Part shown: positions 4,887-26,684 of the stretch, piece by piece
How the letters are laid out: the number at the start of each line of letters is the position of its first letter
Numbering within the stretch: the first letter of the stretch is position 1
NCBI GenBank assembly: GCA_965227835.1
Contig: OZ245768.1
Coordinates: 540,001-572,000 of the forward strand
Source of the DNA: Candidatus Saccharimonadota bacterium
GTDB lineage: Bacteria; Patescibacteriota; Gracilibacteria; BD1-5; UBA6164
DNA length: 32,000 nt
Reading direction: 5' to 3'
Notes under the pieces: model-generated
Seen by the model: only the letters and a program-made list of their open reading frames with translations
Databases searched by the model: none
Told to the model about the DNA's origin: nothing
Translations under genes and position numbers: made by a program

Positions 4887-4910
4887 TTTTTAAAATTAAA
4901 CAACTAAAAA

Positions 4911-4934
4911 AACTTCCTTATTAAAGGAAGTTTC
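4911..4934 (-). terminator. Perfect 10-bp stem / 4-nt loop hairpin followed by a T-run on the minus strand, about 20 nt upstream of the adaptor ATG
   Basis: Plus strand reads aaacttcctt-atta-aaggaagttt, preceded by an A-run (4907-4913), which is a U-tract on the minus strand. Confidence 0.55.
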
Positions 4935-4972
4935 CATAAATAAAATCTTTATGCATGCTTCCTTAAGGTACC

Positions 4973-5009: not shown

Positions 5010-5435
5010 TTAACAGTTGCTTTTTGTACTACCGATTAATGTAATATAAAAATTATTAATCTTCGAAGCTTCTTCTCGTATTGGAGGCGAATTAAGTTTT
5101 TCAATATAATTCTCTTCTTGATCTTCTTGTATTAGAGCTAAAAATGAAAAATCTAAAATTTTTCATTTTAATAACTCTTTTTTCTCGTTTGAATTATGTA
5201 TATTTGAAACAATTCATGAATCATTAAATGGTGAAATACAACATTCATGAGTGATATCTTCACAGTCTCATTTCATAGTTTCACAACAATCATTTGATGA
5301 CATAGCCATCTTTTCTTGCATCATATTATGATGACTCATTTCTACATCATTCACAGCAAAAGAAGCCATTGCAGTAGTCATACATGCAATAGTCGTTGTT
5401 GCGAAGATTATTAATATAGAAATAAGTTTTTTCAT
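5010..5435 (-). CDS. Small secreted Met/His/Cys-rich protein (141 aa), candidate metal-binding partner of the efflux operon
   Basis: ATG at 5435 and TAA at 5010-5012, 426 nt. Signal-like 'MKKLISILIIFATTTIACMTTAMA' is followed by 'VEMSHHNMMQEKMAMSSNDCCETMKGDCEDITHECC'. No family was recognised; the function is inferred from composition and neighbourhood. Confidence 0.6.
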
Positions 5436-5502: not shown

Positions 5503-7530
5503 CTAATCTATTTTTAATTTATCAAAAAAGATCTTATTTCTCATTTTTGAATCATCTACTATTTTATCCCAATCAATAACTTCTATATATAAATTATTGT
5601 TTCAATACCAATCAAAGTAACCTTGTCAATCAGGCATTACTTTAAAGTTCTTTTCTCTTTGTAACCAACTCTTTACTTTTTCAGTTAATGTACAGACTAT
5701 ATATCAATAAAAAGGCGTATTTTCAGCTACTTGGATATTTTTTCATTTAGGTGTTTTATACTTTCAATCCACAATACTGTTAACATATCTAATTATTTGT
5801 TGAACAGGATCTTCCTTAGATGAAGGATTAACAAAATCATCTCTTCATGGTTTCTTAAATTCAAAAATTGTAATCGGATTTGAACTATTATTTTCTCATC
5901 TAAAAGCAATTTTTTTATCAAAAATTATTACATCTCATCTTTCGGTGTTTCATCAATTTAAAGGAATATCTGATGATATATAATCTGCGAAAGCTAATTT
6001 TTCATCAAGAACCCACATATTATGATCATTATAATCTACTGATTCGGAATCATTTTTAGTAGGAAATATAATTGTATGTAAGCTATCTTCAGATTTGTAT
6101 TTTTTAGTATCTTCATCCCATTCTAAAGACTTCTCTAATAAATCTAAGGTGAATTTCCTTGTAGCCACATAGTGTGCTAAGTCTGTTTTAACTAAATCAT
6201 CTAATGATGATACAAGTTCACGAACTTCAGATTCATTTGAAAAATCACTAGTTTTTACAAAAGTATTTACTTTCACTTTTGCTTCTTTTTCTTTTTTATA
6301 TTTTAATTCATGAAACTTTGCATCTAAATTATCTTCAGAAATTGTTGAATCTATACTATTAAGATCAAAATTTTTATATAGTGCACTATACCAAGGAGCT
6401 TTTTTATTAATAAAACTTTTTACTTTATTCACTTTAATAACTTGCTGTTCATCTAAAAAATCCTTATATAATTTTTTGATTTTCTCAGTAACTACATTAA
6501 AAATTTCTTTTTCTCATATAAAATCTTCGAAAACTTCTTCATCTTTTAAAAAATTAAAACTCTCCCTTTCTGTATCAACATTATCATCTAAGTAATCTCA
6601 ATACACATAACACTTTATTGAATAATTATTTTCTTTTTTGTCATTAGTTTCTTTTAATTTCTGATTAAAATCAGGTATAAATTTTCATAAGTTTTCTTCT
6701 ACAACTACCCTATTATGTCAACAAAGACTAATAGTATTATTTTCTATAGAATATTTAACTTTAAAAATTTTTAATCAAAACTCTATTTTATCTGCTTCTA
6801 TATTTCATTTAGGAATATGAAGTTTATTGTTATGTATAACACTTATATCTTCTTTATTTCATATCATTGAATTTAATTTTTCACTATCATATTCATCAAA
6901 TATAACTATTTCTGGACAATTAAAATCATCATCTACAAAGTACATTAATAAATGCTCTAGTAGTTTTCTTCATAGAGTTGGTACTTTTTTACTTTGAGAA
7001 TTTAGCTTCGTTATATATTGTTTTTTTAATCTTGTTAAATATAATTTAGTTCAAGTTTCTTCATCATTAGATACATCAATTATAGTACGATTAGACATCA
7101 TATCTTTTGCATTTATATCAAAAGAAAAACTGATCTTTTTTCTAATATCTCAATCTTGATAAACACTCTCAAAGTCTACCTTTTCAAAGAACTTTAAATA
7201 GAAAAATCTACCAAATCATTTACCTCAATGACTTTCAAGTTTATAATCACTTTTAAAAGTTCTAAATGATTTTTGATTATCAGAATTAAATCAAACCCCA
7301 TTGTCTGTAATAATAAATGATTCTATATCCTCTAAACTTTCCTCTTCTAATCATGATCATAATTTAGTTTGTTTACTTCTTATGACTTTTATAGATATTT
7401 TACCTTCTTTCTTTCAAGATTTTTCAAAAGCATGTATCCCATTTACAATTCATTCGTAAATAGGATAATAAACAGAAGTATTTTTTATATCATTAACTAC
7501 TCATTTTATATTGATTTCTCATATAGCCAT
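5503..7530 (-). CDS. GHKL (MutL/MORC/HATPase_c_3-like) ATPase fused to a C-terminal PD-(D/E)xK nuclease-like domain (675 aa)
   Basis: ATG at 7530 and TAG at 5503-5505, 2028 nt, in frame with track ORF 5953..6432. Bergerat motifs: 'YEGIVNGIHA' (E-x3-N-x3-A), 'ITDNGVGF' (7288-7305, one Gly is TGA) and 'HGGKGFGRFFYLKFF'. C-terminal 'RGDVIIFD...PITIFEFKKPGRDD' (EFK at 5848-5868) fits D...ExK. Confidence 0.75.
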
Positions 7531-7556: not shown

Positions 7557-8954
7557 CTATTTATTCCAATATTCTAATAAATTTTTTAATGCTTCTTTAA
7601 ATAGTTTTGGAGCATTTACTCAAAGAATTAATTTCCCATTCTCATTTAATAAAAAACTCACCTCAATTTCAACTATGGTTTCCTCTGTACTTCAATATAA
7701 AACAACTGATCTTAATATTTCATACTTTGGATAATTAGGTTTAATGTATAAATCTTCAATAGCATCAAAATCATCTAATTCTTTTATTCAATTAGCTCTA
7801 AATTCATATTTTTTTCATTCTAAATTTAGAATTTCACTATTATCAAAATCAATTAATATTAAATCAGGTATTGCTACTTTTTTAGATTTATCTCAATTTT
7901 TATATTCCTCTCTATCTATATATTTTTGCAATGGTATATGTTTTCATTCTTTTGTTAAAAAGTATGATTTTTCACAACCAGCATGATTTTCAAATAAAGA
8001 ATTACTGTTAGTAAAGTATTCAGTAACTATATGAATGAAAATAGTTCCTAGTTTTTCTCATTTTTTATCAAAATGCCAATATTGAGTTTTTGCAACAGGA
8101 ACTGATGAGTCTAATCCATCAAACTCTAAATTTAATTTACTAGCTATTTGAACAAATTTATTATTTCATTTAATATGTTTCTGTTCTAGTCAATGTTTTG
8201 TTATTACTATTTTTTTAGTCCATCAAAGTTTCCTTAATGTAGAAGCTATCAAACTTAAAGCTCAAATATTTGGATCATGAGCTAAACTATCACTCTTCCA
8301 TAATCTACCTGATACTTCTATTCTATCATCATATTTATCTATTAGTATAGGTACATTTCATTTTGGAGGTCTTCTCATTGAATTTTTCATTTCAATAACC
8401 TCATCAATGCTTGAAAATTTTTGTAAGTCATTATCAATATTTTCTTTTCATAAAACTTCTACTCAAAGTGTATACAAACATCTAGTTCAAAAAATATTTG
8501 TATCAGTTTGACTCTTTTTCTCTTCAACTTGAAGAGAATATAACATAATCTTTCTTACATTTGGATAGAAAAAATCAATATATACAAATTTAGAAGCTCT
8601 TTGAAATACTCAAGTATTCCTGCTTTCAGAATCATCAGTCTTAGTTTCTTCAATTGCATATAGTGGTTCATCATTCTCATTTGGTTCATCTTCTTGATAG
8701 AATAATAAGAAATCAACAAAACTAGATTTTCAACTTACTGTTTTAATAAAAATTTCTCAAATTTGTTCTGATGTAAATCAAATTACTTTGTAAGTAAAAG
8801 CAAAATTACCCTCCTTATTTAATACAGGAAGAATTCTAATGGTATCAATAAAACAAGAAATTTCATTATCAGTAACAAACTTATACAATATATTATGTAT
8901 AACTTCTCTTTTAGGTCTTTCCTCAGTTAATATCCATAGATTTTTCTTATCCAT
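7557..8954 (-). CDS. Restriction-endonuclease-like protein with two PD-(D/E)xK-like motifs (465 aa)
   Basis: ATG at 8954 and TAG at 7557-7559, 1398 nt. N-terminal region reads 'SFVDFLLF...LYAIEETKTDDSESRNTGVFQRASKF'. C-terminal region reads 'VAIPDLILIDFDNSEILNLEGKKYEF', a FokI-cleavage-domain-like position. It sits 23 nt downstream of the methyltransferase and 26 nt upstream of the GHKL gene. Confidence 0.6.
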
Positions 8955-8977
8955 TTTTAGTTTTTTTAATATTATTA

Positions 8978-10117
8978 TTAGATATTCTTTTGAAAAATAA
9001 GAATATATTGATGAATTTGGTTTGATACATATGAGAATGGATATCAGTAAGGATATAGATTAACTCATTGATCAGCCCATATTTTAGTTCACAAGTAATT
9101 TAGGTCAGGAATTTCATTTAAATCCAAAATCATATTACAATGTAGAAGATTCAAATCTTTTCATTTTGGTTGCATATCTTTTATAAAGACTACTACATGT
9201 CACTTGTTTTTCAATAACTTCATTGAATTTTCAATACTCTCTTTAAACACTCTTCTAAAGTCTTCAGATTCCATATTTCATAAATCTTCTTTAAGAGAAG
9301 TGTAAGGAGTCGCTGATGTATCTTTTTTTAATTTTATAGCCTCTCATGTTTTTTTTCTATTCATCATATCTCAATATGGAGGATCAATAAGAATTAATGA
9401 TAACTCTTCATCTCAAATTTGATTAGCTATTTTTCATGATTTTAACAGTTTTATAGAATCTCCCTGAATAGTTTTCTGCTCCTTTAATCATAAAAAGTCA
9501 TTTGCTCTTTTGTATGCATCTATAAAATCATCAGATAAGTCTATTCAAATAGCTCTTCTATTACATAGAGAAGCTCAGAGTAAAGTTCAACCTACTCACA
9601 TAAAGTAATCTAATACTAAATCATTCTCTTTAGTAAAAAATTTGATAATCCCTTCCATTAATTGAGGTGGTTTTGGAGATGGGTGTATTTTTCTAATATG
9701 ATGAGCATATCAATCCTCTAAACCTGTTGTATACCTAGTATTTATGACTGAATTCAAGAAAAAAGTCCATTCTCATCATGATAAATCATTTAATTTATTC
9801 TTTAGGTGATACTTTCTTTTATCACTAATTTGAATAACTTGCTTTGAATTACCTATTAAATATGCATTATTTATATCCTCTTTTACCCAAGTTGGAAGTC
9901 CAGCAATTTGTTCTTCTGTTAAATAGTCTACAGCTCTCGTATGTTCTTTATTATCATCATTTTTTATAATCCTAAGCTTATTTTTACACTCTTTTAATTT
10001 CCTATTCAGTAAAATTCCAAATTCTTTTTCAAGGTCATCAATAACCTCATCTTCAAATTCAGACAAATTCTTTTTACTTAATAGTGCTTTAATCTTTTTA
10101 TAATCTATAATGTCCAT
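8978..10117 (-). CDS. SAM-dependent N4/N6 DNA methyltransferase (DPPY type) with permuted motif order and an extra roughly 110-aa N-terminal region (379 aa)
   Basis: Track ORF 9776..10117 continues through TGA TGA. Motifs read: 'LSGGEWTFF', 'HPSPKPPQLMEGIIKFF', 'VLDYFMGVGGTLLGASLCNRRAIGIDLS', then 'LILIDPPYG' (9374-9385), 'LLKNKGHVVVFI' and 'HQYILIFQK'. TAA at 8978-8980, 1140 nt. Confidence 0.8.
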
Positions 10118-10121
10118 TTCT

Positions 10122-11155
10122 TTATTGTTTTTCTATATAAAATAATAATTCCTCAAGATTATGTTTTAGATCTCAAGCTACATGTTTATATCTCCTATAT
10201 GGGATTCTATATAACTTAAATGTTCACTTTTTTGAGTATTTTTCCATTACCTTTTGTATATCACTTTCTCCCATTATTCACTCTGTACTATAACTTAGAA
10301 TGATATGTTTAAAGTTAGCATTGTTGATCAAATCATCAAATTCATTTAAAACATCTTTTTTTATACAATATTTCGATCTAACATTTTTATAAGGTCTCAT
10401 TCATGTTTTACCATAAATTTCAGGATTATCATATTTAGCTATAGTTTCAAGTAAATGATAATTAGGTAGATATTGCCTTGTATTATATGGAGGATCAATA
10501 TATAGAATATCTCAAGAAATCTGTTTAATTAAGTTATTAGCATCTTCATTATATGATATATTATCTTTAGAATTATTTAGTATTTCTATATCATTTAATT
10601 CTAAAGGTTTTAAAGCTCTATTATCCCAATGTTTCAAATATGCTCAATATGTTCAGGCTATATTAGAATAAAAAGGTATAGCATGAATGAGTGTTCCAAG
10701 TAAATAATAAAATTCATTATTTTCGATCAATTCTTTTTGTTTCCATTCATTTAAAGATTGTCTTATAAAATCTATTTTCAGAGCATTATCATTTGAAATA
10801 TACATTCTATCAGACTTTTTATTCGGAGAATAATTTTCATAAATAAAAGGAGTATCTTTAATATCGTTTAAAGATACTTTTTTTTCATTTAGATATTTAA
10901 TAGGATTAGTTCATAAATGAGCTGATATTTTTTTAAATTCAGGAATAACATTTTCCATTATTGCTACCCTCTGCATTACATGTGAAAAAAACAATAAATC
11001 ATTCGATATTATTGTATAATCCTTTTTAAAAAATTCAGCTACTGATCATGTTCAAGAAAAAATATCACAGAAAATATCAACATTATCTTTAATATTTTCA
11101 TCAATTACCATTTTTATTTTATCTAGCAATAATCTTTTTGAACCTATATATCTCA
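10122..11155 (-). pseudogene. D12-class / COG3392-like N6-adenine DNA methyltransferase (M.FokI-domain-like), with the reading frame broken near 11100-11104
   Basis: 'MRYIGSKRLLLDKIKMVI' (from ATG 11155) is in one frame. The rest is in the adjacent frame: 'ENIKDNVDIFCDIFSGTGSVAEFF...NIAGTYGAYLKHWDNRAL...ILYIDPPYNTRQYLPNYHLLE (DPPY 10485-10496)...YGKTGMRPY...ILSYSTEG...YRIPYRRYK', ending at TAA 10122-10124. The body frame has a TAA at 11118-11120 upstream. The N-terminal frame hits TAG at 11039-11041. The pattern is consistent with a 1-nt deletion in 'attg-tgaaaat'. Confidence 0.7.
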
Positions 11156-11368
11156 TTAAAATTCAGTTGTATTAATATTTAAAACTTTCTTAATTTTTAT
11201 TAATTTTAAATAAGTAATATTAGTTTCTCATCTTTCTACCATACTAATATAACTCCTATCAATTCATGTAGCTTCAGCTAGATCAAGCTGACTCATTCAA
11301 AGTTCTTTTCTTGTTTTTTGTAACTCTTTTCATAAACTCACTAATATTTCTTTATCTTTATTTTTCAT
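11039..11368 (-). CDS. XRE-family HTH (RM controller/C-protein-like) ORF that, as written, runs in frame into the first 18 codons of the adenine methyltransferase
   Basis: ATG at 11368. Sequence 'LGKELQKTRKELGMSQLDLAEATGIDRSYISMVERGETNITYL' has four TGA at canonical Gly positions. I checked codon by codon: 'GAA TTT TTA ATG' (11153-11164) gives no stop between the HTH and 'MRYIGSK'. The frame ends at TAG 11039-11041. Confidence 0.7.
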
Positions 11369-11442: not shown

Positions 11443-11955
11443 TTACCTCCTCTGATCATAAAGTGTAATTAATTCCTTTATATCAGCAATTAATGCAGGT
11501 CTATTATCAAGATAGTCATTAAATTTGAAACTATTTTCTAAATTTTCTTTTATAAATTTTCAAAATTTTGAATCTTCTAAAAATATATTTTTCTTATAAT
11601 CCTTACCGTTATCCTGAAAATGAGGCTTATCTGCTTTCCAAAGATCATAGCCCCAATCAATACTATATTTCTTTGCAACTTCAGCTATTTCTTTCCAACT
11701 ATAAATATCTTTTGGATAAAGTTCTTTTCATTTAAAAGCTATATCAATTGCTAATCACTGAGTATGATTAGATTTTAAAGTCCAAGTTACTTTTCTTCAC
11801 TTCCTAGTTCTTCAAAGAGAATATAAATAATTTTGTCTTTTTTGTGACCTATAACTTTCAGTAATAAATATTTTATCTCAAACTTCTTTTAAAAACAGTT
11901 CTACTTTTTTCCTGAATCTAGGATGTAATTTATCTAGTCATCTATATGTTTTCAT
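11443..11955 (-). CDS. Peptidase M15 family (VanY / L-Ala-D-Glu peptidase-like) phage endolysin (170 aa)
   Basis: ATG at 11955 and TAA at 11443-11445, 513 nt. Motifs: 'LHPRFRKKVELF', 'ITESYRSQKRQNYLYSLGRTRKGRKVTWTLKSNHTQGLAIDIAF' and 'YSIDWGYDLWKADKPHFQ'. Confidence 0.8.
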
Positions 11956-11973
11956 ATTAATTTGATGTTAATT

Positions 11974-12309
11974 TTATTTCATAAATTCTTTAGCATAACC
12001 TCTTTTAATTAATTCTTCATTAAGATTAATTCAATCAATAAATATTTCTCATAGCCATCTTCAATATTTACCTTTTTTATCTTTATAGGATTTTAAAATA
12101 ACCTTTTTTCATAGAATCATTTTTCTTACAAAATCTCTTACAATTCTTCATTGCTCTTTTTCTTCTCATCTTAGTTCAGGAGTATCTATTCCATATAATC
12201 TAATGGTTTGATCTTTCCATATATGATTAAATCATAAATCAATATTTATAGTTACTGTATCTCAATCATAAACCTTTATAACTTCTGCAGAATAAATATA
12301 TTTTTCCAT
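11974..12309 (-). CDS. Staphylococcal-nuclease (SNase/thermonuclease)-like nuclease (111 aa)
   Basis: Sequence 'VYDGDTVTINIDLGFN...IRLYGIDTPELRGEEKEQGRIVRDFV...KDKKGKYGRWLGEIFIDGINLNEELIKRGYAKEF', 336 nt. Confidence 0.75.
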
Positions 12310-12310
12310 A

Positions 12311-12691
12311 TTATTTTTTTATAAAATAAAATTCTTTTCAATATTTACATAAAAGAAAAAAACAAATAAACTTGATAGAAAAACGATGAGAAAATTTAGC
12401 CCAATGTAGAAGCTTATATATCTTACTAGCAAACTTATAATTTGATTTATAAAAGCCTTTTCTAAAACGAAAATCAATATCATGCTCTACACAAATCATT
12501 CTTATATCTTCATATAATTTTTCTGATTTTTTCTTATCAAATCAAGGAATAATTTCTAAATTATCTTTCAAAATTTTATCAAAACTTATTCCTCATTTTC
12601 ATCAACAACCATTAACTATTTCTCAATAAAATAAAGCTCCTAGCTCTTGCTTAGTAAGACTATATTCTAAAATTTTCTCTATACTTCTCAT
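12311..12691 (-). CDS. Hypothetical protein (126 aa)
   Basis: ATG at 12691 and TAA at 12311-12313, 381 nt, open under code 25. It abuts its neighbours with 1-2 nt gaps. Confidence 0.55.
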
Positions 12692-12692
12692 A

Positions 12693-12905
12693 TTATTTTG
12701 TAAAAGATTCTAAAATTTTCTCTCAAAAAATTGATAAAATACTAAGTCATCACATAGCTAGATAAATTCTTTTATTTATAGACTTAATATCAGCAGAGTG
12801 ATTTGTTACATCTTTTTCAAGTCTATTTACTCTTCAGTTAGTTTTTGTAGTTTGAATTAGTATTTTTTCTAATTTTTCAAAAATTAAATCATTATGATTT
12901 CACAT
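12693..12905 (-). CDS. Small hypothetical protein (70 aa) with a C-terminal hydrophobic segment; weak holin candidate
   Basis: ATG at 12905 and TAA at 12693-12695. 'IYLAMGGLSILSIFG' lies near the C-terminus. Position is in the lysis/accessory cluster. Confidence 0.45.
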
Positions 12906-12907
12906 AT

Positions 12908-13150
12908 TTAAGTATTGTTAATCGTTAAAATTCTATTAAGCACCTCAGTTAAAATATTATTTACTACAGTTATCTGTTCTTCAGTTAAATTTGTGGTTCA
13001 TTCATTTAAAAGAGATTGTATTTGTTCATCTACAGCACCCTTAGCTATAAAATAAATCATATCTTTATTTACTTGTATAAATTCAAGTAATTCATCCTTA
13101 GTCATAAGAAATACAGGACTTGTATCTGCTCCTCAAATATCTACTCACAT
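12908..13150 (-). CDS. Hypothetical protein (80 aa)
   Basis: ATG at 13150 and TAA at 12908-12910, 243 nt, open under code 25. Confidence 0.5.
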
Positions 13151-13157
13151 ATTTTTA

Positions 13158-13415
13158 TTAATTACCAACTAAAATTTCTAAAGTACCACTCCCTTTTACT
13201 TCTATTGGGAATACATTTATTTTTTTACCACTTCAAGACTTAATCTTATTTCTTCTAAGTCTGAATTCAGCTTGTCATTCTCATCATCTATAATCAATAT
13301 TACTACTTGTTAACATTGAATAAGATGAATACCATACCTTATTTCATTTTCAATCAGTTATCACTGGTCTTTCCCATTCTCAAGACATGGTATGTTTATA
13401 AGTTGTTTCAATCAT
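13158..13415 (-). CDS. Hypothetical protein (85 aa)
   Basis: ATG at 13415 and TAA at 13158-13160, 258 nt, open under code 25. Confidence 0.5.
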
Positions 13416-13430
13416 TGTTTAGAAAATTAA

Positions 13431-13844
13431 CTATAAATTTTTAATCTTTTTTATTTCTTCTCTCTTTATTTTCTCAGCATGTATATAGATCTGAGAATAT
13501 TCTGAAGCTTTACTCATTATCTTTTCAGCTAACTCTAGAGTTGTTTCTCATTCTATAACAAGAGATTCTAAAAGTTCAGAAGTACCTCATGCTATTACTT
13601 TTTCTGACTCTTCTATTTTCGCTTTCCAAGTATCAATCTCAGCTTGAGAATATCAGGCTGAAAATTGATTTATTCTATCTTGAAACTGTTTATTTATTAT
13701 TCATATTTTATACTGTTTAATTTCATCTGTTAACACTTCAGGTTCTTCTAAAACTAGCTTACTTTCTTCATTTATATATGCTTTGTATCACATATCTATT
13801 AATCTCTTTTGCTCTTTTGTTAGAGTGTCAAAATTCAATTCCAT
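13431..13844 (-). CDS. Hypothetical coiled-coil protein (137 aa) immediately downstream of the fibre gene
   Basis: ATG at 13844 and TAG at 13431-13433, 414 nt. The ATG lies 3 nt after the fibre stop ('AGA TAA AA ATG'). Confidence 0.55.
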
Positions 13845-13846
13845 TT

Positions 13847-16063
13847 TTATCTGATTATTACATTAAAAGTACCAGCGGTTCAAGCTGTTCAATTTGTTCA
13901 AGCACTTCAAGGCTGTGGACTATATGATCCTGAAACAGTTCATCAAGCACCTCATGATCATCAAGCACCTCAACTACTTAATAAGTTATAGTTCGCACTA
14001 TCTAATCCACAGATAATAGCTCAACCTCCACCTCATCATCATCCTCATCAACCTCATCATCCTCAACCTCAACCTGCACCAGAATTTCATCATTTTCATC
14101 AACTTCAACCACTTGCTCATCTAATATCAATAGTTCAACTTCCTTTTATTTCTCAGGCTTTGATTATGATATTTCATCAGTTATTACCTAATTCTCATCA
14201 TGCTCATCAACCTCAACCTGCACCATTACTACATCAACCACTTCATCAAGCTGAAGTTCAACCTGAATTTTGAGTATATGTTCAGTTCCAATTAGCATTT
14301 CATCATGGATTTCAATAAGCATCTCATCAAGAATTACTACATGAACCATATCATCATAAACCTCATGGAAATCAACCAGCACCACCTGAACCTCAGCTTT
14401 GTGAATCAGCAGCACCTCAACCTCATCCTCAACCATACCCTCAAGGATCTCATGCTCATCAAGAAGCTCAAGCTAAGTATCAGTTTATACTATGACTACC
14501 TCAATTTCATCAAGCACCACCTGATCATCAATTTCATGGTGTTAAAGTAGATCAATTGAATAAAACAATATTTCAATTATTTCAGAGTCATACTACATTT
14601 ATAGTTCATTCAATATTACAAATCCTACTACAATTTAGCTCTAAAACTCAATCACTACCTGTTACTTGTAAGGTAGCTCAAGAAGCCACAGTAATACTTG
14701 AATAGTTATATATCCCAAATGCTAAATTATATGTTCATGATAAAACTTCTAGATCTCAATCTCATCAATTTCAATAAAAAAGATCTATTCATAAAGCACT
14801 GGAATCAAATGAGATTTCAGTTTCACTTATAGCTCTGAAATCATTTCAAGTTGTTAGGTTTCAGGTAGAAATATCATAGGTATAGTAGTTTCAAGTTACT
14901 AATCCTGTTTGGTGTTTATCATATCAGGTATTAACTTTCTTAAATTCTCATGCATTTCAATCAGCCTGAAGTATTCAAATAAAATTAGTTCATCAAGGAA
15001 TAATAAGTTTATATCATGGTATTTTTAAATACATATCTCAGCTTGCTCATTGCCAAGATATTCAATCATAAAGTAATGCTTGTCATATAAAATCTCAATT
15101 TGATATAGTTCTTCATATTTCATATCTATTAACATCTGAATAAGTTCATGTTCTTTTTACTACTATGTGATATAAAACTTCATTATCTAAATTACAAGCA
15201 GTAGAAAATGTAAAAGCTTTCTCAGTTAATGTTCAATTAAGTTCGGTATAATTGATTGTATTTGATGTTCAATTTGTAACTACAGTTCAACTAGGAACTC
15301 AAGCATTATCAGTTTGTATTTCTATATAAATTCAATCATCAGGACTTCAAACTGTTTTAAACATTAAATTAATAGTATCTATAGCTCATTGTCAGTATAT
15401 TTTTTGTCATACATAAGGTCTAGAATTACTACCAAAATACATATTATCATCATGATCAAGTTGTGAATAATCAACCAAACTCATTGCTTTTCAAACAGTA
15501 GTATTTTGACCTAGCATATAATTTAAACTTGCACTATTAACTTCAGCTTGTAATCAAGTAATATTACTTCAATCAAGAGCTGGAAGTTTTCAGTTTTCAT
15601 CTGTTTTTACTAATTGATTCACTCAATTAAAAATATTTCACATCTTTGTTACTGATGGATTTTTTAGATCTATAAATACTCTTTCATCTGTAATTACTCA
15701 AGAATCTATTGAAGCTAGTTTTATAAAATTACTAGTAGGATAACTACCAGCTGTTTTTATTTCTCAAATTCAGGTTCAACTTGAATTATTACTGATTCCA
15801 TCATCTACATTTGCTTGATTTATTTCTATAAAAACTTTTTTAGTTCAAGTTGTATCAATAACTACATCAGCTGTATTTTGAAATAATACAGGGAAAGTTT
15901 CTGAATCTCTAGTCACATCAATAAATCAGTAACCTGCTGTTACTTTTCAAGATTGCACTTCTAATCATTCAACTACTCAGGAACTAGCAAGTGATTTAAA
16001 AATTTTTGCTAGGTCATAGTCTTGGTTTATATTTTCTCAGTTTAATAAAGCTACTCTTTGCAT
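13847..16063 (-). CDS. Glycine-rich tail fibre / receptor-binding-type protein (738 aa). The C-terminal third is mostly Gly, and most of those Gly codons are TGA.
   Basis: I translated every codon from 13847 to 16069. There is no TAA/TAG between TAG 16067-16069 and TAA 13847-13849, and the first ATG is at 16063. The C-terminus contains 'GGSGGAGGNGG...GGYGGGGGGAADSQSGGSGGAGG...' and an 18-residue poly-Gly (14021-14074). Track ORF 14188..14436 is an off-frame artefact. Confidence 0.8.
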
Positions 16064-16083
16064 TAACTAGATATAAAAAAATA

Positions 16084-16128
16084 ACTGTAAAAATATTACA
16101 GTCATCTTTTTTCCCCTCAAGGTCTTTT
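16084..16128 (-). promoter_or_regulatory. Repeated intergenic element, copy 1: box AAAAGACCTTGAGGGGAA (16111-16128) plus a 7-bp hairpin (16084-16102) and T-run. It lies upstream of the fibre gene.
   Basis: The box overlaps the TAA of the upstream gene. The box end is 48 nt from ATG 16063. The spacing TTGAGG-N17-AATATT places the hexamer at the hairpin apex. Confidence 0.6.
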
Positions 16129-17155
16129 ATATCTCAAGGTTCTTGGTTCTATTTTTTAAATCTTGGATTGTTTCTATTAAATTTAAAGTCTTTATATTTC
16201 ATTTACTCAGCTTTATTTTTACTTTATTTAATTCTCATGATCTGAATTCTTTTTCTATTATTTTTAAATGAGAATCAAACTGCATAATATCATTTCAAGC
16301 ATCAATAAAAACTTTTACAGTATCTCATAAGTTTGCTACAAAAAAATCATAACTTAAAGGGGTAATTTCAAGTTCCCTTATGGAATCTTTTCTATCAGAT
16401 AACAGACTATCTTTATCTCATGAAATAAAATACTTTTCTTGTCTTCAAAACTCATTAATACTTGGCAAATCTTCACTGTTTCAGGTATCTTTTGATATTA
16501 CTGCATTACTAATATTTTCACTATCATATTCAAGCTTTGCTGTATCTATAGTTCTACTTCATGGGAAGTTTATATCATAAGAAAACTCTATAAAATTGGT
16601 TCAACTTGTTTTATCTTCTCATATGGAATTTAAAAAATATAAAATATTATTTCTTATTTCAAACTCATATCAATTCAAGGCTAGATCTTTTAAAATATCA
16701 AAAAATGTTTGTCATTTTTTATAGGTTTTAGTTACCTGATCTAGTATATCTGAATTCAATGTTATTCCAGTATCATATCTAGAATTTATTACATCTAGTA
16801 CATCTATTAATATAGATTTAATCTGAGTATTTGTATATGATTTATCAGTGTATAAAATCTTATTTTTTAGTAAAAATATCTTATCATTTAAAATTACTTT
16901 TGTTTTACTCAAATCAGCTTCTACTCCTCTTATAATTCCATCAAATATTAATTTTTCACTATTATTTTCTACCTTGTATATTAAAACTTCATTAAATTCT
17001 TTAAAATTATTATATGAGTTAGATTTATGAGTATTTGATACTTCAAAGCTAGCACTAGAAATATCATTTAATTTTTGTCTTACTTCTAGTTTATTTACCT
17101 CAAATATCTGAGTTTTTTTATTTCACTCATGATCATTTACATAAATTATAAACAT
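16127..17155 (-). CDS. Phage tail structural protein (Tal / prophage-tail N-terminal-domain-like), 342 aa
   Basis: ATG at 17155 overlaps the upstream stop (TAATG). In frame with track ORF 16712..16912, 1029 nt. N-terminus reads 'MFIIYVNDHEGNKKTQIFEVNKLEVRQKLNDISSASFEV'. Position is after Dit and before the fibre. Confidence 0.55.
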
Positions 17156-18027
17156 TATAAAAGTGAATTACGGAAATAAATATTTATTAAGAAATCATTA
17201 AATGGTATATTACCATCTTTATCCTCTATAAGCAGTTTTGTAGTTTCTAAAATTCTAATCCACATACTTCAAGCAATCCTGTTTGATAGAATATTTTCTC
17301 AATTTTTGGTTACTGTATAATTTTCTGAATCTATAACTATCTTATCTCAAGCTACTGCATCTATGTCTAGTCAGAAATATGTATTTTTTGTTAGATCTCT
17401 TATCATTAATGGTTTATTAATATCTCCACTTGCTGTTATTTCTATACGAGCTGGAGTATCTATATTTCAAGTAGTCGTACATTCTATAATGTTATCTATA
17501 TCACTAAATGGATTTGATAATTTATAAGAGAGTTTAAATCCTCAATAATTTCACTCAAGTGAGGTATTTAATATTTCATTTAAGCTCTTATATACTGGCT
17601 CTTTGGTACTTTCTAGAACTACTCTCCACTTCCAATAACTTCAAACAAAAGATTCATCTCACTCTACAATTTCAAGAGGTTCTTTTATTTTTACTTTCAA
17701 AGTCCACTCATTATCATACATATCTTTGATATATAATTCTTTTTCTTCTAGACTCACTAGACTTCATTGCAGTGCAAATATTTTTTGTAAATACTCGATA
17801 GAGTTTTGATCTTCTAAAGGATTTCAAATTCTATCACTGATTCACTCTAGAGTTATTATTCTTATCCTTGCATAAGTAGGACTTACATTCCTCCCATGTA
17901 TTCAATCTATATTTTCTGAATCATCACTTACTGTTAATTTTCTCCAATCCTTAAAAGTATAAATAATTCATGATTCATTATCTTTTAAAATATCTTCTCA
18001 GTTTAATTTTGCGATTTTAAAATCCAT
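17155..18027 (-). CDS. Distal tail protein (Dit, siphovirus tail component-like), 290 aa
   Basis: ATG at 18027 and TAA at 17155-17157, 873 nt. It lies immediately downstream of the tape measure gene. 'NIDTPARIEITASGDINKPLMIRDLTKNTYFGLDIDAVAGDKIVIDSENYTV' is typical of this family. Confidence 0.6.
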
Positions 18028-18036
18028 ATTTAAATA

Positions 18037-20937
18037 TTACATTCTAAATTTTAGCTTATCAAAGAATAGTTCTAAATCTATGCTATTTGCTACATTAATA
18101 TTTCATACATCTACCTTTTTTGAGTAATCATTTTGCACCGATCTTCCTTGTCTTATAAGTTCAAGTTCAGGAATTATATTTGGCATTTTTTGTATCATTT
18201 CTTGATTTAATACATATTCTCATTTATGCACTACTCATGCTACTTCATGCTTTGCTCAATCTCATGTATAACCTCACTCAGCAAATCAAGCAGAACTACT
18301 ATTTCTAAGTGCATTTAATCTTCTTTGAGCTGAAATAGCACTATTTACTTGAGATATAAGACTTTTATAAGATGTAGATAAACTTGCTACATTTTTATTC
18401 AATATAGATGTAGTCTTATTTGATAATAAAATAGTCGCTTTATTAATTTCTATTTGCAGTTCAATAGCTTCATCTTTTTGTCTTGTAAGAGCTTCTTTTT
18501 CTCTAGCTAGTTTAAGTATAACTTCTTGCTCCTCCTCAGATAGCCTTAAAAATCTTTCATCTTTTATGATAGTATCTATTTCTTTTTCAGTTATTCTTTT
18601 CTTTTCAGCAAAAAACTCATAAAATTGTTGTTTTCTTTCTAATGCTTCCTTTTCTGCATTCAACTCATTTTCTGCATCTATTTCTTTTTGGTTAGACTCG
18701 GATATTATTCTTTGTTTCTCTTTTTCCTGATCTATTAATATTTTTCATATTTCTGAAGCTTCATCATATTTTCTAAGTCTATCTAATACTTTCTGATCTA
18801 CTATTTCTTGAGCCTGAAGTTCTTCTTTTATCAGAGCATTTAACTCCTTTTGTAAAGCTATTTTTTCTTCAGCACTTTCAGTATCCTCTTTGATTTGCAA
18901 TTGAAGTTCTTGCTTTTCTTTTTCTATTTCAAGTAATCTTTCAGCTATTTTTTCCTGAGCTGAGTTATTATTTTCTCCAAGTCTTTCTTCTCTCTCTTGT
19001 TTAATAAGTTTAATGGTTTCCTCATATTTCTTTTTATTTTTATCTAAAGCATTATTTACTTTTCTGAGTCATATTTCAATTTCATCATTATATTTTTTGG
19101 TATTCTTTGCTAAGCTTTCACTTAATTTCTCAGATTCTTTTATTTTAGCATTATAATCTTTATAGCTATCTTCTAAGTCTTTCATATTATCTTTGATTTC
19201 TTGTGTTGCACCAGCTCATGCTTTTCACATATCTTTAGCTTTTCCTCAAACTTTTTCAAAGCTAGATCAAAGTCCATCAATGGTAGTATTTATTTTATCA
19301 AATACTCAGGTACTACTTTTACCTGTATCAGCTATATCTGTTTCATAGGCATCAATATTTTCTAGCATTCTATCAAATGCCTTAGAATTATTATTTTTGA
19401 TCTTATCCCATGAATCAGTCCAAGCTTTTTTTGTGTTTTCTAATCATTTACCATTTTTAAGTACTAACTCTTCCATTTCAGTATTTACTTCCTTTATTTG
19501 AGCTATGGTATTTCTACCTAGTAATTCTAAAAGTATATTTATCTTATCTATTGCTGAATTTATAATTCCTATTACAAAGTTAACTGATTTTTTACCTGCT
19601 AGCTGAACGATATTTAAGGCAGATCAGAAAAAATTACCAAGTCATGTTCCAAGTGTTTTTATAGCTCAGAAAATACTTCATAAAACTGTATTTATAACAA
19701 TATAAATAGCCTGAAAGCCATTTGATATTGCCATTGCTAAAAACTTAAATAATTTGAAATTATCTTGAACTTGTTTTTTATTTTCTCAGGTTAATATCTG
19801 GAATGCATCGGTTATTATTTCAAATACACTTGTAAAAATCCCTGCTATTGCTTTTCATATATTGATTACATTTGTTGCTATATCACTTCAAAAATCAATA
19901 ATAGAAGCCATATTATTTTGCAAAAAATTGTTTATAGTTCCTATAATTCACTTTAAAGTATCTGATATATTAAGTCACATCTTTGATCCTGCTATCTCTA
20001 CATTATCTACCAAATTACTCCACATACCTGTTAGAGTTTTAGCTTGTTTTTCCATACTTCAGGCAAATTTTTCATTTAATCCTGTAAGTATAGCATTTAC
20101 AGCTGTAGCTGAATCAATTCCTTGATTTCATAAATCTCAAAGCTGTGCCTTAGTAAGTCATAATTGCTCTTCCAAAACTTTAAAAATTGGCAAACCTCTC
20201 TCAGCCATTTGTAGTACCTCTTCAGTAGATAGTTTTCACTTAGCTTCTATTTGTCATAATGCTAGAATAACTCAGTTTAAATCATCTTGTCATCTACCTA
20301 CTGCACTTATTGAATCTCATAAAACTTTTACAGTAGCAAGAGCTTTTTCTCACTCAAATCAAAATCATATAAGTTGTTGTATTGATTTTGTTAAACCTAG
20401 TTTATTAAATGGAGTTTGAGATGCTAACTCATCTATATCTTGTAGCATCTGAAGTGCTTTTTGCTCACTTCAAAGCAAAGTTTCAAAACTTATTTTTGCT
20501 TGCTCTACTTCAGCTCCTAGTTTTGATATTCACTTTATAAAATTTCAAATAGCATAAACACTAAATGCTCATGCTATAGCTCATCAAATACCTTTAAAAA
20601 ATCATCATAGTTTTGATGTTTTATTTGTTACTTTGCCAAGTTCTTTTTCTGTTTTCTTTACTTCTTTTTGTAATTCTTTAAATCTCTTACTTCATATCTT
20701 AGTATCATCAAGTTCATTGTTTAAATTCTTTAGTTTAGAGTTTAATCATCATATAGTTTTCGTAGTTTTTTCTGATTCAGATTTTATTTCTTTTAATCAT
20801 TTTTTTCATGAGCTCCCTAACTCTTTTTCAATAGTATCTCATGCTTTTTGAAATTCATTTTTTATTTTTAAGGTAGAATTCTTTATACTATTTTCATCTA
20901 CTGATAATCAAACTCTTAGTTCTCATAGGTTAGACAT
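18037..20937 (-). CDS. Tail tape measure protein (TP901-type core), 966 aa
   Basis: ATG at 20937 and TAA at 18037-18039, 2901 nt, in frame with track ORF 18286..18663. Core sequence reads 'LASQTPFNKLGLTKSIQQLIGFGFEGEKALATVKVLGDSISAVGRGQDDLNGVILALGQIEAKGKLSTEEVLQMAERGLPIF', followed by TM-like segments and a long coiled coil. Confidence 0.9.
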
Positions 20938-21382
20938 TTTTCTTTATATTATTTTTTAAAGCAGTTAGTTTTTTCTTTGGATTTTTTCTATCTTTGTCAT
21001 ATTTTTCTTCTCAAGCTATAACTTTGATATCCTCTAGTAAATCATTGAATACTTTTAAAGGTGTAGCCATTGTTTGTCAGTAAGAATTACCAAAAAATTT
21101 CATAAAAAATCAGATCTTTATATGGAAATCTTTAAGAGGTTTTTCTTGTTTCTTTTTGGTATTTAGTAAGTTATCCAAGTCCTCAGATTCAATCTCAAAT
21201 AATTTTTGTATAAGCTGTTTCAATTGCTTTTCATCAAGTACAGGAATAGTAGGATTAAATTCTAGGAATATCTCTTCTATAAACTGTTCTATATCTGATA
21301 AAGCTAGGAAATATCCTCATACAGTCAGTTCTCAGACCCTATAGTCTTTATTTCAGTATTTCACTTTTATTTTTCTTCTCAT
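20930..21382 (-). CDS. Putative tail assembly chaperone (150 aa)
   Basis: ATG at 21382. The stop TAA at 20930-20932 overlaps the tape-measure ATG. N-terminus reads 'KYGNKDYRVGELTVGGYFLALSDIEQFIEEIF'. The call rests on position between the major tail and tape measure genes. Confidence 0.55.
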
Positions 21383-21391
21383 AGGCAATAA

Positions 21392-21448
21392 AAAAGATTT
21401 AATCTATAATTTAGACTAAATCTTTTAGTGTTCCTCTCAAGGTCTTTT
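21392..21448 (-). promoter_or_regulatory. Repeated element, copy 2: box AAAAGACCTTGAGAGGAA (21431-21448) plus a 10-bp hairpin (21392-21426)
   Basis: The box starts 3 nt after the upstream TAA. The box end is 49 nt from ATG 21382. TTGAGA-N17-AGTCTA places the hexamer in the hairpin loop. Confidence 0.6.
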
Positions 21449-21451
21449 ATT

Positions 21452-21715
21452 TTAGGAGAATTTATAAGTAAAATAACTAAGTAATCATATAATATCTTCT
21501 TTTAAAACTACTACGATGTCATTTTCTCTCTGAAGTAGCCTTTTAAATATTTTTATCCATGTTCAAATTAAATCTTTTTTTAAATCTATTACTTCTAGAG
21601 AATTTTTAAAATAAGTTTTATCAGCTTCACAGAAGCTATATTTATATTCTATTCCTCAAAGAGAAAATACATCAGTTTCTTGTTTCTTATATTTATTTAG
21701 ATCAAGAGTTTCCAT
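21452..21715 (-). CDS. Hypothetical protein (87 aa), possibly a second tail chaperone
   Basis: ATG at 21715 overlaps the major tail stop (TAATG). TAA at 21452-21454, 264 nt. Confidence 0.5.
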
Positions 21716-22482
21716 TAGCTAACTGCTTGTTCATCAAAAATTTCAAAGATATTATTGTTACCATCAGGATATCCTATAAATTCTACTGGAATACTTGCTA
21801 CTGACTCAAGATCATCATCTTCAGGGAAATCAAAAGCAAGATTGCTTGTTGCATAACCTTTATAGATTTTGATACCGAATTTTTTACCATTTTCATCAGT
21901 ATTTTCAAATGTAACTTCATATAGATTAAGAGCCTTAAGTACATCTTTATAAATCACAGCTTTTGAAACATTAGGAGTGTAAGTATATGTTACTGTAATT
22001 TCTCCAGCTTGTGCTGATTTAAATAAAATATATGTTTCTCCTAGTTCTCAATTTTCTCCATCTCAAACATAAGTTGAATATGATGTAGACGTAACTGTAG
22101 TTCCATCAGCTTTTACATTTGTAATAGTGATAATACTATCATCTCCATTCTTATTATTAAGCTTAAAAGGAGTATAAGCTATACCAACTGCTCAGTAAAC
22201 TTCATCTGTTACTGTTGTAGGTATTCCTGCTGTATTTACTAAATCTCCGATTCCATCTACTTTTGCAATGTTATCTAAAAATAATTCAGCAAGTTCAGCA
22301 TTAAATTTAACCTGATCTATCTTTTTTCTTGGTGGTAGTTTAGAGTTAGCAAATTTTAATTGAGCTATCAAGAATGACACTTCTAGTCATGCTCATTTCA
22401 ATGCTCATACATTTACTCCATCTAATTTCAGAATACCATTTCACATTCTGATAGAATCAGATCTTTGCACTGGTGTTTGCAT
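21715..22482 (-). CDS. Major tail protein (255 aa)
   Basis: ATG at 22482. Track ORFs 22192..22380 and 21715..21957 are in the same frame, joined through TGA, 768 nt. The protein is beta-rich with an acidic C-terminus. Position is upstream of the chaperone and tape measure genes. Confidence 0.65.
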
Positions 22483-22502
22483 ATTTTATATTGGTTAAAA
22501 AA

Positions 22503-22551
22503 ATAATACCTGTATAAACTACAAGTATTATTTTTCCCCTCAAGGTCATTT
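22503..22551 (-). promoter_or_regulatory. Repeated element, copy 3: box AAATGACCTTGAGGGGAA (22534-22551) plus an imperfect 13-bp hairpin (22503-22533) and T-run
   Basis: The box starts 4 nt after the upstream TAA. The box end is 52 nt from ATG 22482. The spacing is TTGAGG-N17-AGTTTA. Confidence 0.6.
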
Positions 22552-22555
22552 CAGT

Positions 22556-22966
22556 TTAGAATTTCTGATCTTTAAATACAAATTTAAAAGTAAGAGGTTT
22601 ACGAAATAAATTCTTTTCAGGATTAGACATATCAGGTCATACATTTACAAGTTGTGACTTTACTCCATCATCTTTTGATCTATTAAATAATCAAACTACT
22701 AGATCCTTTATTTCTTCAAACTCTTCCATATTTGTTGCCCAAACATCTATTTGAAAGGAATCTTTTCTTATTCATAGATTATTTGTACTTCATCATACAT
22801 GACTATAGCTTATAAAAGGTCTATCAGTTCCTTTTATACTTTCAAGATCTCTACATATAACATTTTCAGGTCATCAAATTTTTTGTATTAAATTTACATA
22901 ATTTGTGAGTCTATCATATATGTATTTTCTTATATCTATAAATCATAATTCACTATGTTCTATCAT
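22556..22966 (-). CDS. Tail completion / head-tail joining protein (DUF3168-like), 136 aa
   Basis: ATG at 22966 and TAA at 22556-22558, 411 nt. Contains 'RPFISYSHV...FQIDVWATNMEEFEEIKDLV'. Confidence 0.5.
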
Positions 22967-23406
22967 GAGTATTTTTTTAATAATTTACTAAAGTTACCTT
23001 TTAATATTTGAGTAAGCTCTTTTTCATTATCATTAAGTCATTGTCTTAAATAACTTCTTTCTTCTATATCATCAGTTCAGAACTCTAAGGCTCTTCAATA
23101 TTCCTCAGTTATTCACTGGTTTACTCCAACAACATATCTTCATTCTCAAATTTTCTCCATTCAAATACTTCTTTTCAAGTTTCATGTAACTCACTCATAC
23201 CAATGACCATCTATTTGTACTGGTTTATAATGACTACTTCTCTCAGGAGCTTTTCAATCTTTTCTATCAATATTATTTTTCGGTAATCTATCTTTATCTC
23301 TCGGAGTTATTTCTCTTACTTTGGAAACAAGAATATTTGATGTAATCAAGACTGATTCATCTATACTTCTTTTTAACACCTGAGTATTCAAACTAAATTC
23401 AGCCAT
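22960..23406 (-). CDS. HK97 gp10-like head-tail protein (148 aa)
   Basis: ATG at 23406. TAG at 22960-22962 overlaps the next ATG. Contains 'KVREITPRDKDRLP...VVGVNQGITEEYGRALEFGT'. Confidence 0.5.
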
Positions 23407-23410
23407 AGTA

Positions 23411-23761
23411 TTAGTTTATAAATCTTAAAATACTTTTATTATGGTCGTGTTTCTTATTCATATAGACCCTTTCTACAAATATAACTTCAAAAGTATTTGT
23501 TTCTTGCAAGACTTTATCTCATTTTTTAGGCAGAGTATCAGTTTTACAATATAATTCGTATTCCTTAGATGTAAAACCTAATTGTCATGCACTATCAAGA
23601 CTATCATCATTTATGGATTTTCATCTCTCTAAAATTATTCACTTAAATAAAATCTGAGTCGAAGAGTCTTTCACTTTCTCTCAATACTTATTCAGACCTT
23701 TAGTAATACTTTCCAGAGTAATATCTTGAAAGGCAAAGCCAAAATTATCTATAAAAGCCAT
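23411..23761 (-). CDS. Putative head closure / head-tail adaptor protein (116 aa)
   Basis: ATG at 23761 and TAA at 23411-23413, 351 nt. The call rests on size and position between the connector and gp10-like genes. Confidence 0.45.
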
Positions 23762-23768
23762 AAATTTT

Positions 23769-24362
23769 TTAAATTATTCATTTAAAAGATTTATACTTTG
23801 AAATTATCATATCGAAGTTTTGTTTAATAGCTATATTAAATCTATCTTTAATGTTAGATTCTCTCTCAGACTCTCAAAAGTAAGTTACAGAAAGGCTTCC
23901 GAGCTTCTGAGTTTTTATATTTTTATTCTCTAAACTCTCGCTATTATCTCCACTTATTCATAAATCGATTGATAAATTAATGCATAAATCTAAACTCATT
24001 TTCTCTATGTCAGAAGGAACTGTATCAAATCAAATATTATACTTAATTTCTATATTTTTCTTTCATTTTCTAGTCTTTTCTTCTAAATATAGTATATAAT
24101 TATCTATATAATCTACAGTGTAGTTATAAGACTCATTTTTAAGCTTTATATATTCAATATTATTAGCTTTGTGATCTAAGTATATCTTATTACTTCAAGT
24201 TCCATCTACTCTTGCAATTATATCTTGTTTTCATAAGTTATATCATATTTTGGAGTCTATCATATTTGTAGCTTGCTCTATAATTAAAAGAAGCTTTGAA
24301 TCACTACTATTATCAGTAATTCAAAGCTTATCTTTTAAGCTACTTAAAGTAGTATAATTCAT
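23769..24362 (-). CDS. gp6-like head-tail connector protein (197 aa)
   Basis: ATG at 24362 and TAA at 23769-23771, 594 nt. The N-terminus 'LSSLKDKLGITDNSSDSKLLLIIEQATNMI' is typical of this family. Confidence 0.55.
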
Positions 24363-24368
24363 TGTTTG

Positions 24369-24779
24369 TTATATTAATCAATTATCTGTAGCTAAATTTT
24401 TAAGTTCCTCATCTGTTTTTCATTCTAGTTCTGATTCATCTAATATTCACTCATTAACTAATAGTTCTCAGTAATTTGTAGTATCTGAATCTGTATTATC
24501 AGTTATTTTTCCTGATTCAAGTTCATCTACTAACTTATTCAGTTCAGCAACTTTCAATTTTTTATCATACTCTACTCAAGCATGATCTAGAATTTCTCTA
24601 CATTCTTTTCAAGTTCTCTGATTATCATTTTTTACTATATTTTTCTTTTCAATCTTTTCTTTTACTACTGAAAATCAAGCTTGTAAGTAATCATCTAGTT
24701 TTGATTTATCTATATCTAAGATTTGTCATTTCTTAGCTCAGTTATAGATCCTATTTTTATTATTTATAACTCTAACCAT
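24369..24779 (-). CDS. Hypothetical acidic protein (136 aa) downstream of the capsid gene
   Basis: ATG at 24779 and TAA at 24369-24371, 411 nt, open under code 25. Confidence 0.5.
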
Positions 24780-24798
24780 ATTAAATTTATATTAAAAA

Positions 24799-26010: not shown

Positions 26011-26033
26011 TTTTTACTAAATTATAATATAAA

Positions 26034-26450
26034 TTAATCTATTTTTGAGATCCTTTGATCTTTTAAAACTTTTTCTATACTTTCAACTCTATCAATTGTA
26101 GAATCAAGAGCATCAGATACTGTTTTATCATCTTCTTCTTTTTCTTTTTTAATTTTTTCTATATCTCCTGTTAATTCTTTAAGTTGTCACATAAAATTTG
26201 TTACATCATCAGAAGATAAATACATATCCACATATTTTTTGATAGCTTCTTTTCAATCATCTGACTCAAAAAACTTTTTAATATCTTTTTCGGAAGTAGT
26301 TTCAGTTTCATCTTCTACCTCTTTAGAAAGTTTAGCTTTCATTTCAGAAGCCTCTTCAAATTTCTTAATTGCTTCCTCTGATTTATCTTCTTTTAATAGA
26401 GATATACCATCAGAAAAAACTCCAAAAAATTTTTCTAGTAGTTCTTTCAT
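26034..26450 (-). CDS. Scaffolding protein (138 aa, acidic coiled coil)
   Basis: ATG at 26450 (the Met internal to track ORF 26253..26513, whose upstream extension crosses the repeat box). Continues through TGA to TAA 26034-26036, 417 nt. Confidence 0.65.
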
Positions 26451-26674: not shown

Positions 26675-26684
26675 CTTATTTTTA

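Follow-up and report, generated by a model that had tools for sequence, protein, structure and literature searches.

A predicted single-protein anti-phage nuclease of the paraMORC3/VcSduA family beside a prophage in a code-25 bacterium

VcSduA, paraMORC3 and Shedu as described relatives

VcSduA is a 673-aa protein (AWB73059.1) encoded on VSP-II of the WASA lineage of Vibrio cholerae, which confers defense against T1-like phages in E. coli and against phage X29 in V. cholerae (Adams et al., Nat Microbiol 2025, PMC12137116). The single gene suffices for defense in E. coli, and the mutants E27A (ATPase) and K557A (nuclease) each lose defense. Protection was observed at all multiplicities of infection tested, which the authors attribute to direct restriction with survival of the host. 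In the published model VcSduA forms an entwined dimer whose middle domain is clamp-like; the authors equated its architecture with that of paraMORC3 (PMC12137116). The paraMORC3 proteins had been described earlier as a GHKL plus S5 module followed by a conserved C-terminal domain of the restriction endonuclease (RE) fold, with an E-D-ExK signature and an affinity to RecB (Iyer, Abhiman & Aravind, Biol Direct 2008, PMC2292703). The subset that carries the endonuclease domain was found as standalone genes, and the distribution was sporadic and laterally mobile, in 2008 mainly among proteobacteria and bacteroidetes (PMC2292703).

GHKL-bearing proteins have also been listed as type 1D Shedu (Gu et al., bioRxiv 2023), and VcSduA-type proteins are filed in the literature under Shedu type I-D. 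Canonical Shedu SduA from B. cereus or E. coli is likewise a single-protein PD-(D/E)xK defense nuclease with an N-terminal regulatory domain; VcSduA-type proteins are modeled as dimers, unlike the tetramers of canonical Shedu. At a greater distance, MutL, MORC, SMCHD1 and Hsp90 also combine the Bergerat fold with an S5-like transducer behind it, in which a basic residue is conserved.

The stretch of DNA analyzed here, referred to as the window, is 32,000 nucleotides long and contains a gene on the minus strand at 5503..7530 whose 675-aa product is very probably a single-protein anti-phage nuclease of the paraMORC3/VcSduA family, as predicted from the comparisons presented below. BLASTP aligned the window protein with residues 1-399 of VcSduA (E=1e-44, 30% identity, collinear over 7-414), pairing E26 with VcSduA E27, and gave E=2e-63 against Porphyromonas gingivalis PG_RS06305, which heads the authors' list of VcSduA homologues. 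Because of these two alignments the protein is assigned to the VcSduA family. The two proteins have in common an N-terminal GHKL domain, a clamp-like middle and a C-terminal PD-(D/E)xK domain within a single polypeptide. Their lengths (673 and 675 aa) also agree, as do, by residue number, the positions of their nuclease lysines (K557 and K559); the VcSduA residue numbers 27 and 557 are matched by a single family member only. Compared by description, the protein further corresponds to paraMORC3 in having GHKL and S5 domains, an RE-fold domain with E-D-ExK, and no conserved neighbor. A preliminary description of the locus had implied that this architecture was new; it was described in 2008 as paraMORC3 (PMC2292703).

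Gene reading, ATPase, transducer and helical arm

The standard-code listing of open reading frames contains no long ORF across 5503-7530, and translation of the plus strand over this interval yields stops throughout. The minus-strand frame contains 29 in-frame TGA codons and a terminal TAG as its sole other stop. With TGA taken as glycine (code 25), this frame gives the 675-aa protein, beginning with the ATG at 7530 and ending with the TAG at 5503-5505, and the gene is readable in no other way. Glycine is then specified by 29 TGA and 6 GGN codons. At the columns occupied by TGA in the window gene, 45 homologues from standard-code organisms have glycine in 413 of 1223 cells and tryptophan in one, and at the TGG columns they have tryptophan in 97 of 266 cells and glycine in none; at the conserved-glycine columns G80 and G105 all 45 have glycine. 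TGA is therefore read as Gly rather than Trp, as the preliminary description had silently assumed. Code 4 (TGA=Trp) was ruled out because the TGA codons sit on invariant glycines. TGA is the major glycine codon, accounting for 42-100% of Gly codons, in almost all of the window's host and prophage genes that were checked, which makes the source a code-25 organism. Its DNA is ~26% G+C, and from this and its code it is probably of the Gracilibacteria/Absconditabacteria type; the host of VcSduA, by contrast, is not a code-25, ~26% G+C bacterium. In public collections the window protein is written with Trp for its 29 TGA glycines, and close relatives are likewise mistranslated, with Trp at the catalytic glycines.

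Read in this way, the gene encodes the single polypeptide of the preliminary description, with all of the motifs quoted there present at the places given. Residues ~1-170 (7021..7530, minus strand) form a GHKL (Bergerat-fold) ATPase domain, as assigned from invariant motifs, Pfam relatives and Foldseek. Motif I is E26-x3-N30 within YEGIVNG, motif II is D76-x-G78-x-G80 within DNGVGF (residues 76-81), motif III is G102-G-K-G-F-G107 within GGKGFGRFFY (102-111), and motif IV is G160-T161. Conservation was counted in an alignment of 361 full-length homologues to the family HMM. The motifs reported earlier for the N-terminal part are not chance occurrences: E26 is kept in 354 of the 361 proteins, and N30 and D76 in 360 each. 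Pfam HATPase_c matches the window protein weakly (E=0.0097; 16.8 bits, with a gathering score of 26.4) and matches 30 of 52 family members. HATPase_c_3, one of the profiles proposed earlier as a check, was matched weakly, by 18 of the 52 relatives with a best E of 4.4e-4. A search of PDB sequences with the window protein gave no match.

The fold was examined on an AlphaFold2 model of the homologue P0003, which is 68% identical to the window protein and was modeled with Trp at the TGA positions (mean pLDDT 83). The model has four parts: the GHKL domain (~1-170), a beta-rich middle, five long helices, and a C-terminal alpha/beta domain. Foldseek comparison with the PDB returned GRP94/Hsp90, SMCHD1, PMS1, TRAP1, Topo VI-B and MORC3/4, all with a probability of 1.00, and also MutL; E values were 4e-9 to 3e-6. 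The alignments span both the GHKL and the transducer domain of these targets; the TMt values were 0.55 for the PMS1 N-terminal domain, 0.51 for MORC4 and 0.49 for MutL LN40. The predicted fold of the family is thus, from structure comparison, the Bergerat fold, and the comparison with MORC and MutL N-terminal domains that had been suggested earlier gives matches over the GHKL and transducer domains alike.

The S5-like transducer (middle) domain is assigned to residues ~175-339 (6514..7008, minus strand; ~175-335 in P0003 numbering) on the basis of Foldseek and a weak Mlh1 profile match. In the latter, the family profile aligned with Mlh1 at E=0.055, placing 'YLDeNVsteR' over 'DVNVHPTK'. The window protein has 'YLDDNVDTER' at this place, and the invariant R322 that ends it (kept in 360 of 361 homologues) falls, in this weak profile alignment, opposite the phosphate-sensing Lys of the MutL/Mlh1 'NVHPTK'. 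By homology, R322 would contact ATP. The transducer is joined to the nuclease by a Lys/Glu-rich helical arm of ~130 aa (residues ~340-468; 6127..6513, minus strand), which DSSP resolves in the P0003 model into helices at 336-350, 352-373, 375-383, 395-423 and 429-464. The preliminary description had placed a linker of ~350 aa between the two end domains and left it unassigned. Given the two-domain Foldseek matches and the Mlh1 profile alignment, this region can be assigned: it comprises the remainder of the GHKL domain, the S5-like transducer and the helical arm.

A true MORC protein was considered and ruled out: Pfam Morc6_S5 has no match in the window protein, and HATPase_c_3 matches are weak and confined to 18 of 52 relatives.

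The C-terminal PD-(D/E)xK nuclease domain

The C-terminal ~205 aa (residues ~469-675; 5506..6126, minus strand) are predicted from motifs, model and Pfam to form a RecB-like PD-(D/E)xK nuclease domain. The strings GDVIIFD (532-538) and ITIFEFKKP (553-561) are present, and the key residues are E481 and H485 in the first helix, S520-D521, D533, E557-x-K559 and Q578-x3-Y582. E481, D533, E557 and K559 are each found in all 361 homologues, H485 in 360, Q578 in 359 and Y582 in 354. The D...ExK nuclease recognized earlier at this end of the protein therefore stands; its length is ~205 aa rather than the 170 aa first given. Both the ATPase and the nuclease active sites are essentially invariant in the family.

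The domain was also modeled alone, using AlphaFold2 and residues 460-668 of the homologue P0012 (pLDDT 86, pTM 0.85). The model shows the canonical PD-(D/E)xK order of helix-strand-strand-strand-helix, followed by further strands. In the numbering of this domain, E15 and H19 are carried by the first helix, D67 lies directly before the strand at 68-71, E91 and K93 are at the end of or just past the strand at 87-92, and Q112 is on the helix that follows ExK. A strand ending in S-D precedes the D strand, which is followed by the strand bearing the E of ExK and then by the QxxxY helix. Judged by sequence, the E-D-ExK-QxxxY signature is the RecB-like pattern.

Among the profile HMMs, matches of the family nuclease domains to Pfam were below threshold and almost all to families of the PD-(D/E)xK clan. 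HSDR_N was matched by 10 of 32 and 27 of 70 domains in two sets (37/102), PDDEXK_9 by 3 of 32 and 9 of 70 (12/102), and SduA_C by 3 of 32 and 0 of 70 (3/102, best E=8.4e-4). The window protein itself is without a match to Pfam SduA_C (PF14082, formerly DUF4263), to the PADLOC models at E<=0.1, or to NCBIfam and PHROGs. The top Foldseek matches of the nuclease domain were McrC (E=0.031), NotI (0.11) and BstEII (0.43), with TM ~0.3 and none at E<=0.001; no Shedu structure is among the 50 matches listed. Comparison of the nuclease-domain profile with PDB sequences gave chance matches only. The assignment as a nuclease is solid for motif, topology and clan, but not for a particular member of the clan.

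At the profile level, the predicted nuclease domain of the family is nearer to HsdR-N than to SduA_C, HSDR_N being its nearest Pfam model. This proximity could be taken to mean that the family arose as an independent fusion and is not a true Shedu, a reading that we regard as improbable. The earlier proposal of an ATP-dependent, MutL/MORC-like module joined to a PD-(D/E)xK domain of its own is upheld by Foldseek, by the topology of the nuclease domain and by homology to VcSduA. Unlike MutL, the window protein lacks a C-terminal endonuclease or dimerization domain and has the PD-(D/E)xK domain instead.

Locus, family distribution and proposed mode of action

The gene is the last of five closely packed genes on the same strand, which are arranged C-M1-M2-R followed by the paraMORC3/VcSduA-type gene. 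The first is an HTH controller-like ORF (C, 11156-11368, minus strand), whose stop overlaps the start of a D12-class N6A methyltransferase gene (M1, 10122-11156, minus strand); an N6_N4 methyltransferase (M2, 8978-10117, minus strand) and a Type II restriction endonuclease (R, 7557-8954, minus strand; PADLOC E=1.7e-65) follow. The gap between the restriction endonuclease gene and the gene under study is 26 nt. A prophage (11443-31176) with genes for terminase, portal and head proteins, a tape measure, a tail fibre and an endolysin lies upstream of the cassette. On the downstream side come a small secreted protein rich in Cys and His and an efflux pair of the HlyD/RND type, so that the cassette sits between the prophage endolysin and the host efflux genes. 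The VcSduA gene, in contrast, adjoins GrwAB. The promoter scan gave background levels, the terminator scan found no terminator-like site between the cassette genes, and the window contains no tRNA gene. Given the tight packing, co-transcription with the restriction-modification (R-M) genes is possible.

Homologues are numerous and widely scattered. Among public proteins, 93 homologues were found, all full-length and collinear, with lengths of 612-720 aa, and a second search with the family profile added no further proteins. An exhaustive profile search yielded 1963 cluster representatives with E<=1e-30 (4750 with E<=1e-3), the best 150 matches all being full length. In a genome scan, at least 592 species carried relatives; they include an Altiarchaeota MAG and members of the Pseudomonadota, Acidobacteriota, Spirochaetota, Bacteroidota, Saccharibacteria and Peribacteria. 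The family is distributed sporadically among taxa. Relative to the 2008 description, the range of paraMORC3 is widened here to Saccharibacteria, Peribacteria, code-25 bacteria and an Altiarchaeota MAG. A second, truncated paralogue of the window protein may be present, possibly in the same genome.

The surroundings of these homologues are varied. When all flanking ORFs at 80 homologue loci were clustered, no neighbor family occurred at more than 11; the commonest were MmeI-type proteins (11), DEAD helicases (9), HsdM (7), serine recombinases (5) and T5orf172 proteins (5). Some homologues lie within Type I R-M loci, and others adjoin HpaII, MmeI or DndB-type systems, reverse transcriptases or HEPN proteins. 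One adjoins an integrase fragment, and P0003 lies next to a true MORC gene, which has both of the Pfam domains and encodes a separate protein. Homologues thus sit in defense islands or next to mobile elements among changing neighbors, and the family gene is a defense-island resident without a fixed partner.

These observations bear on the possibility that the neighboring Type II(S)-like R-M system uses the protein as an accessory subunit, serving for DNA that escapes M1 and M2 or as a looping motor. In favor of such a subunit, the gene trails C-M1-M2-R on the same strand after 26 nt with no terminator-like site between, and a role tied to R-M was suggested by Iyer et al. for MORCs and paraMORCs generally, including that of a motor that loops DNA to connect recognition with cleavage sites (PMC2292703). 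We nevertheless consider this role highly improbable: some homologues adjoin Type I, HpaII, MmeI, DndB, reverse-transcriptase or MORC genes and others have no such neighbor, with the top family (MmeI) at 11 of 80 loci; the nuclease-bearing paraMORC3 genes are standalone according to Iyer et al.; VcSduA protects E. coli by itself (PMC12137116); and the window protein has a complete nuclease site of its own. The earlier suggestion that the protein recognizes or acts upon DNA missed by the neighboring methyltransferases lacks support, because homologues adjoin unrelated R-M types or none and because VcSduA works singly. Given the tight spacing, such surveillance might nonetheless apply at this one locus. 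A related reading, in which the five genes form a prophage-edge operon that cooperates with the R-M system, is likewise improbable; if it were true, methylation marks might serve for self/non-self discrimination and so provide a trigger for the family.

'Sensor histidine kinase' and 'ATP-binding protein', the names under which NCBI lists some of the homologues, would, together with the weak Mlh1 profile match, fit a sensor histidine kinase or a housekeeping MutL-like DNA repair factor. Pfam, however, detects no HisKA or other phospho-acceptor His domain in the 52 family members, and a dimerization-histidine domain, a MutL C-terminal domain and a receiver partner are all lacking. The ATPase, moreover, stands at the N-terminus and has the transducer behind it. 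The sporadic distribution, the defense islands or mobile elements nearby and the possible truncated paralogue also argue against a housekeeping function, the probability of which we consider almost negligible.

Our preferred reading remains a single-protein anti-phage nuclease of the paraMORC3/VcSduA family, and its mode of action can be proposed by homology. Binding of ATP would cause two protomers to dimerize through their GHKL domains. The S5-like transducer would read the gamma-phosphate, or nucleotide state, through Arg322, and the transducer and helical arm would together form a clamp-like cavity that holds DNA. The ATPase cycle would then license the C-terminal RecB-like domain, with D533, E557 and K559, to cut invading phage DNA. 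The protein would act alone rather than as a subunit of the neighboring R-M system. In this scheme dimerization, ATP gating, the substrate and the trigger are all extrapolated from described relatives.

The same protein could instead act by abortive infection, with a triggered nuclease degrading host and phage DNA and the cell dying as a result. Such a mechanism has been proposed for some Shedu-family members, for example PD-T4-8 (Gu et al. 2023), and no element for self/non-self discrimination is visible in the sequence of the window protein. Protection of cultures by VcSduA at every multiplicity of infection tested (PMC12137116) points the other way, and abortive infection is in our judgment rather unlikely.

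Taken together, this protein is an ordinary further member of a family whose architecture has been known since 2008 and whose experimentally validated prototype, VcSduA, dates from 2025. It provides one more data point, at the profile level, for a family nuclease domain closer to HsdR-N than to SduA_C. Mistranslation with Trp at catalytic glycines, as seen in its public records, can conceal or distort GHKL motifs when annotation is automated. With this gene, which lies in a cluster that abuts a prophage, the range of the family comes to include code-25 candidate-phyla bacteria.

Genetic code and stored translations

TGA is a glycine sense codon (code 25) throughout the window, for example in the GHKL ATPase–nuclease gene at 5503-7530 and in the genes at 13847-16063 and 29701-31176. 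TGA makes up 42-100% of glycine codons and is the majority glycine codon in almost all of the host and prophage genes that were checked; the tail-fibre gene uses TGA 120 times, partly inside a stretch of 18 consecutive glycines. Entries in the public protein collection for the window protein and for proteins closely related to it (P0363 and P0001-P0011) are code 4 translations, in which TGA is read as tryptophan. Because the stored translations use this reading, tryptophan appears at the invariant glycines of the GHKL G1 and G2 boxes, as found in 11-13 of the 361 family members. The structure model of P0003, a homologue with 68% identity to the window protein, was likewise built on a sequence with TGA as tryptophan.

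Residue 532 of the window protein (5935-5937) is also encoded by TGA and places Gly-Asp where the nuclease 'PD' motif has Pro-Asp. Among distant homologues, 35 of 45 have proline at this position, as do 5 of 6 close ones.

Relatives of the ATPase–nuclease

A second family member, P0002 (75% identical, 612 aa), ends abruptly after 'NTPFY'. It is located outside the window, on a 1,489,121-bp contig that matches in length the one recorded for the window protein, and is possibly a truncated paralogue within the same genome. At locus L092 (L092:5478-6929 and L092:3235-4692), the 68%-identical relative P0003 immediately follows a genuine MORC gene encoding HATPase_c_3 and Morc6_S5 domains. A HATPase_c_4 protein is also encoded close to this relative, and the locus therefore contains three consecutive GHKL-type genes.

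Neighboring genes in the window

Downstream of the ATPase–nuclease gene, the minus strand at 5010-5435 encodes a small Cys-, His- and Met-rich secreted protein containing 'CCETMKGDCEDITHECC', followed by a terminator-like hairpin at 4908-4935. HlyD and RND efflux genes start just downstream, and the small protein may bind metal as a partner in heavy-metal efflux.

A prophage-like block occupies 11443-31176 on the minus strand. It encodes a terminase large subunit and a portal, a head morphogenesis protein, a capsid-like structural protein and a tape measure, and it also contains a Gly-rich tail fibre, an SNase-like nuclease and an M15 endolysin. No integrase or tRNA genes are present within the 32,000-nt window that holds it. 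At the terminase end, the C-terminal part of an N6_N4-type DNA methyltransferase (31661-31999, minus strand) extends past the window edge, additional to the methyltransferases of the R-M cassette.

The R-M/GHKL cassette begins just downstream of the end of the block. Its compact R-M portion (7557-11368, minus strand) comprises an HTH controller-like ORF, whose stop shares one base with the start of the first methyltransferase gene (M1), together with D12 N6A and N6_N4 methyltransferases and a Type II endonuclease of 465 aa. The presence of two methylases suggests that the recognition site of the cassette is asymmetric (Type IIS-like).
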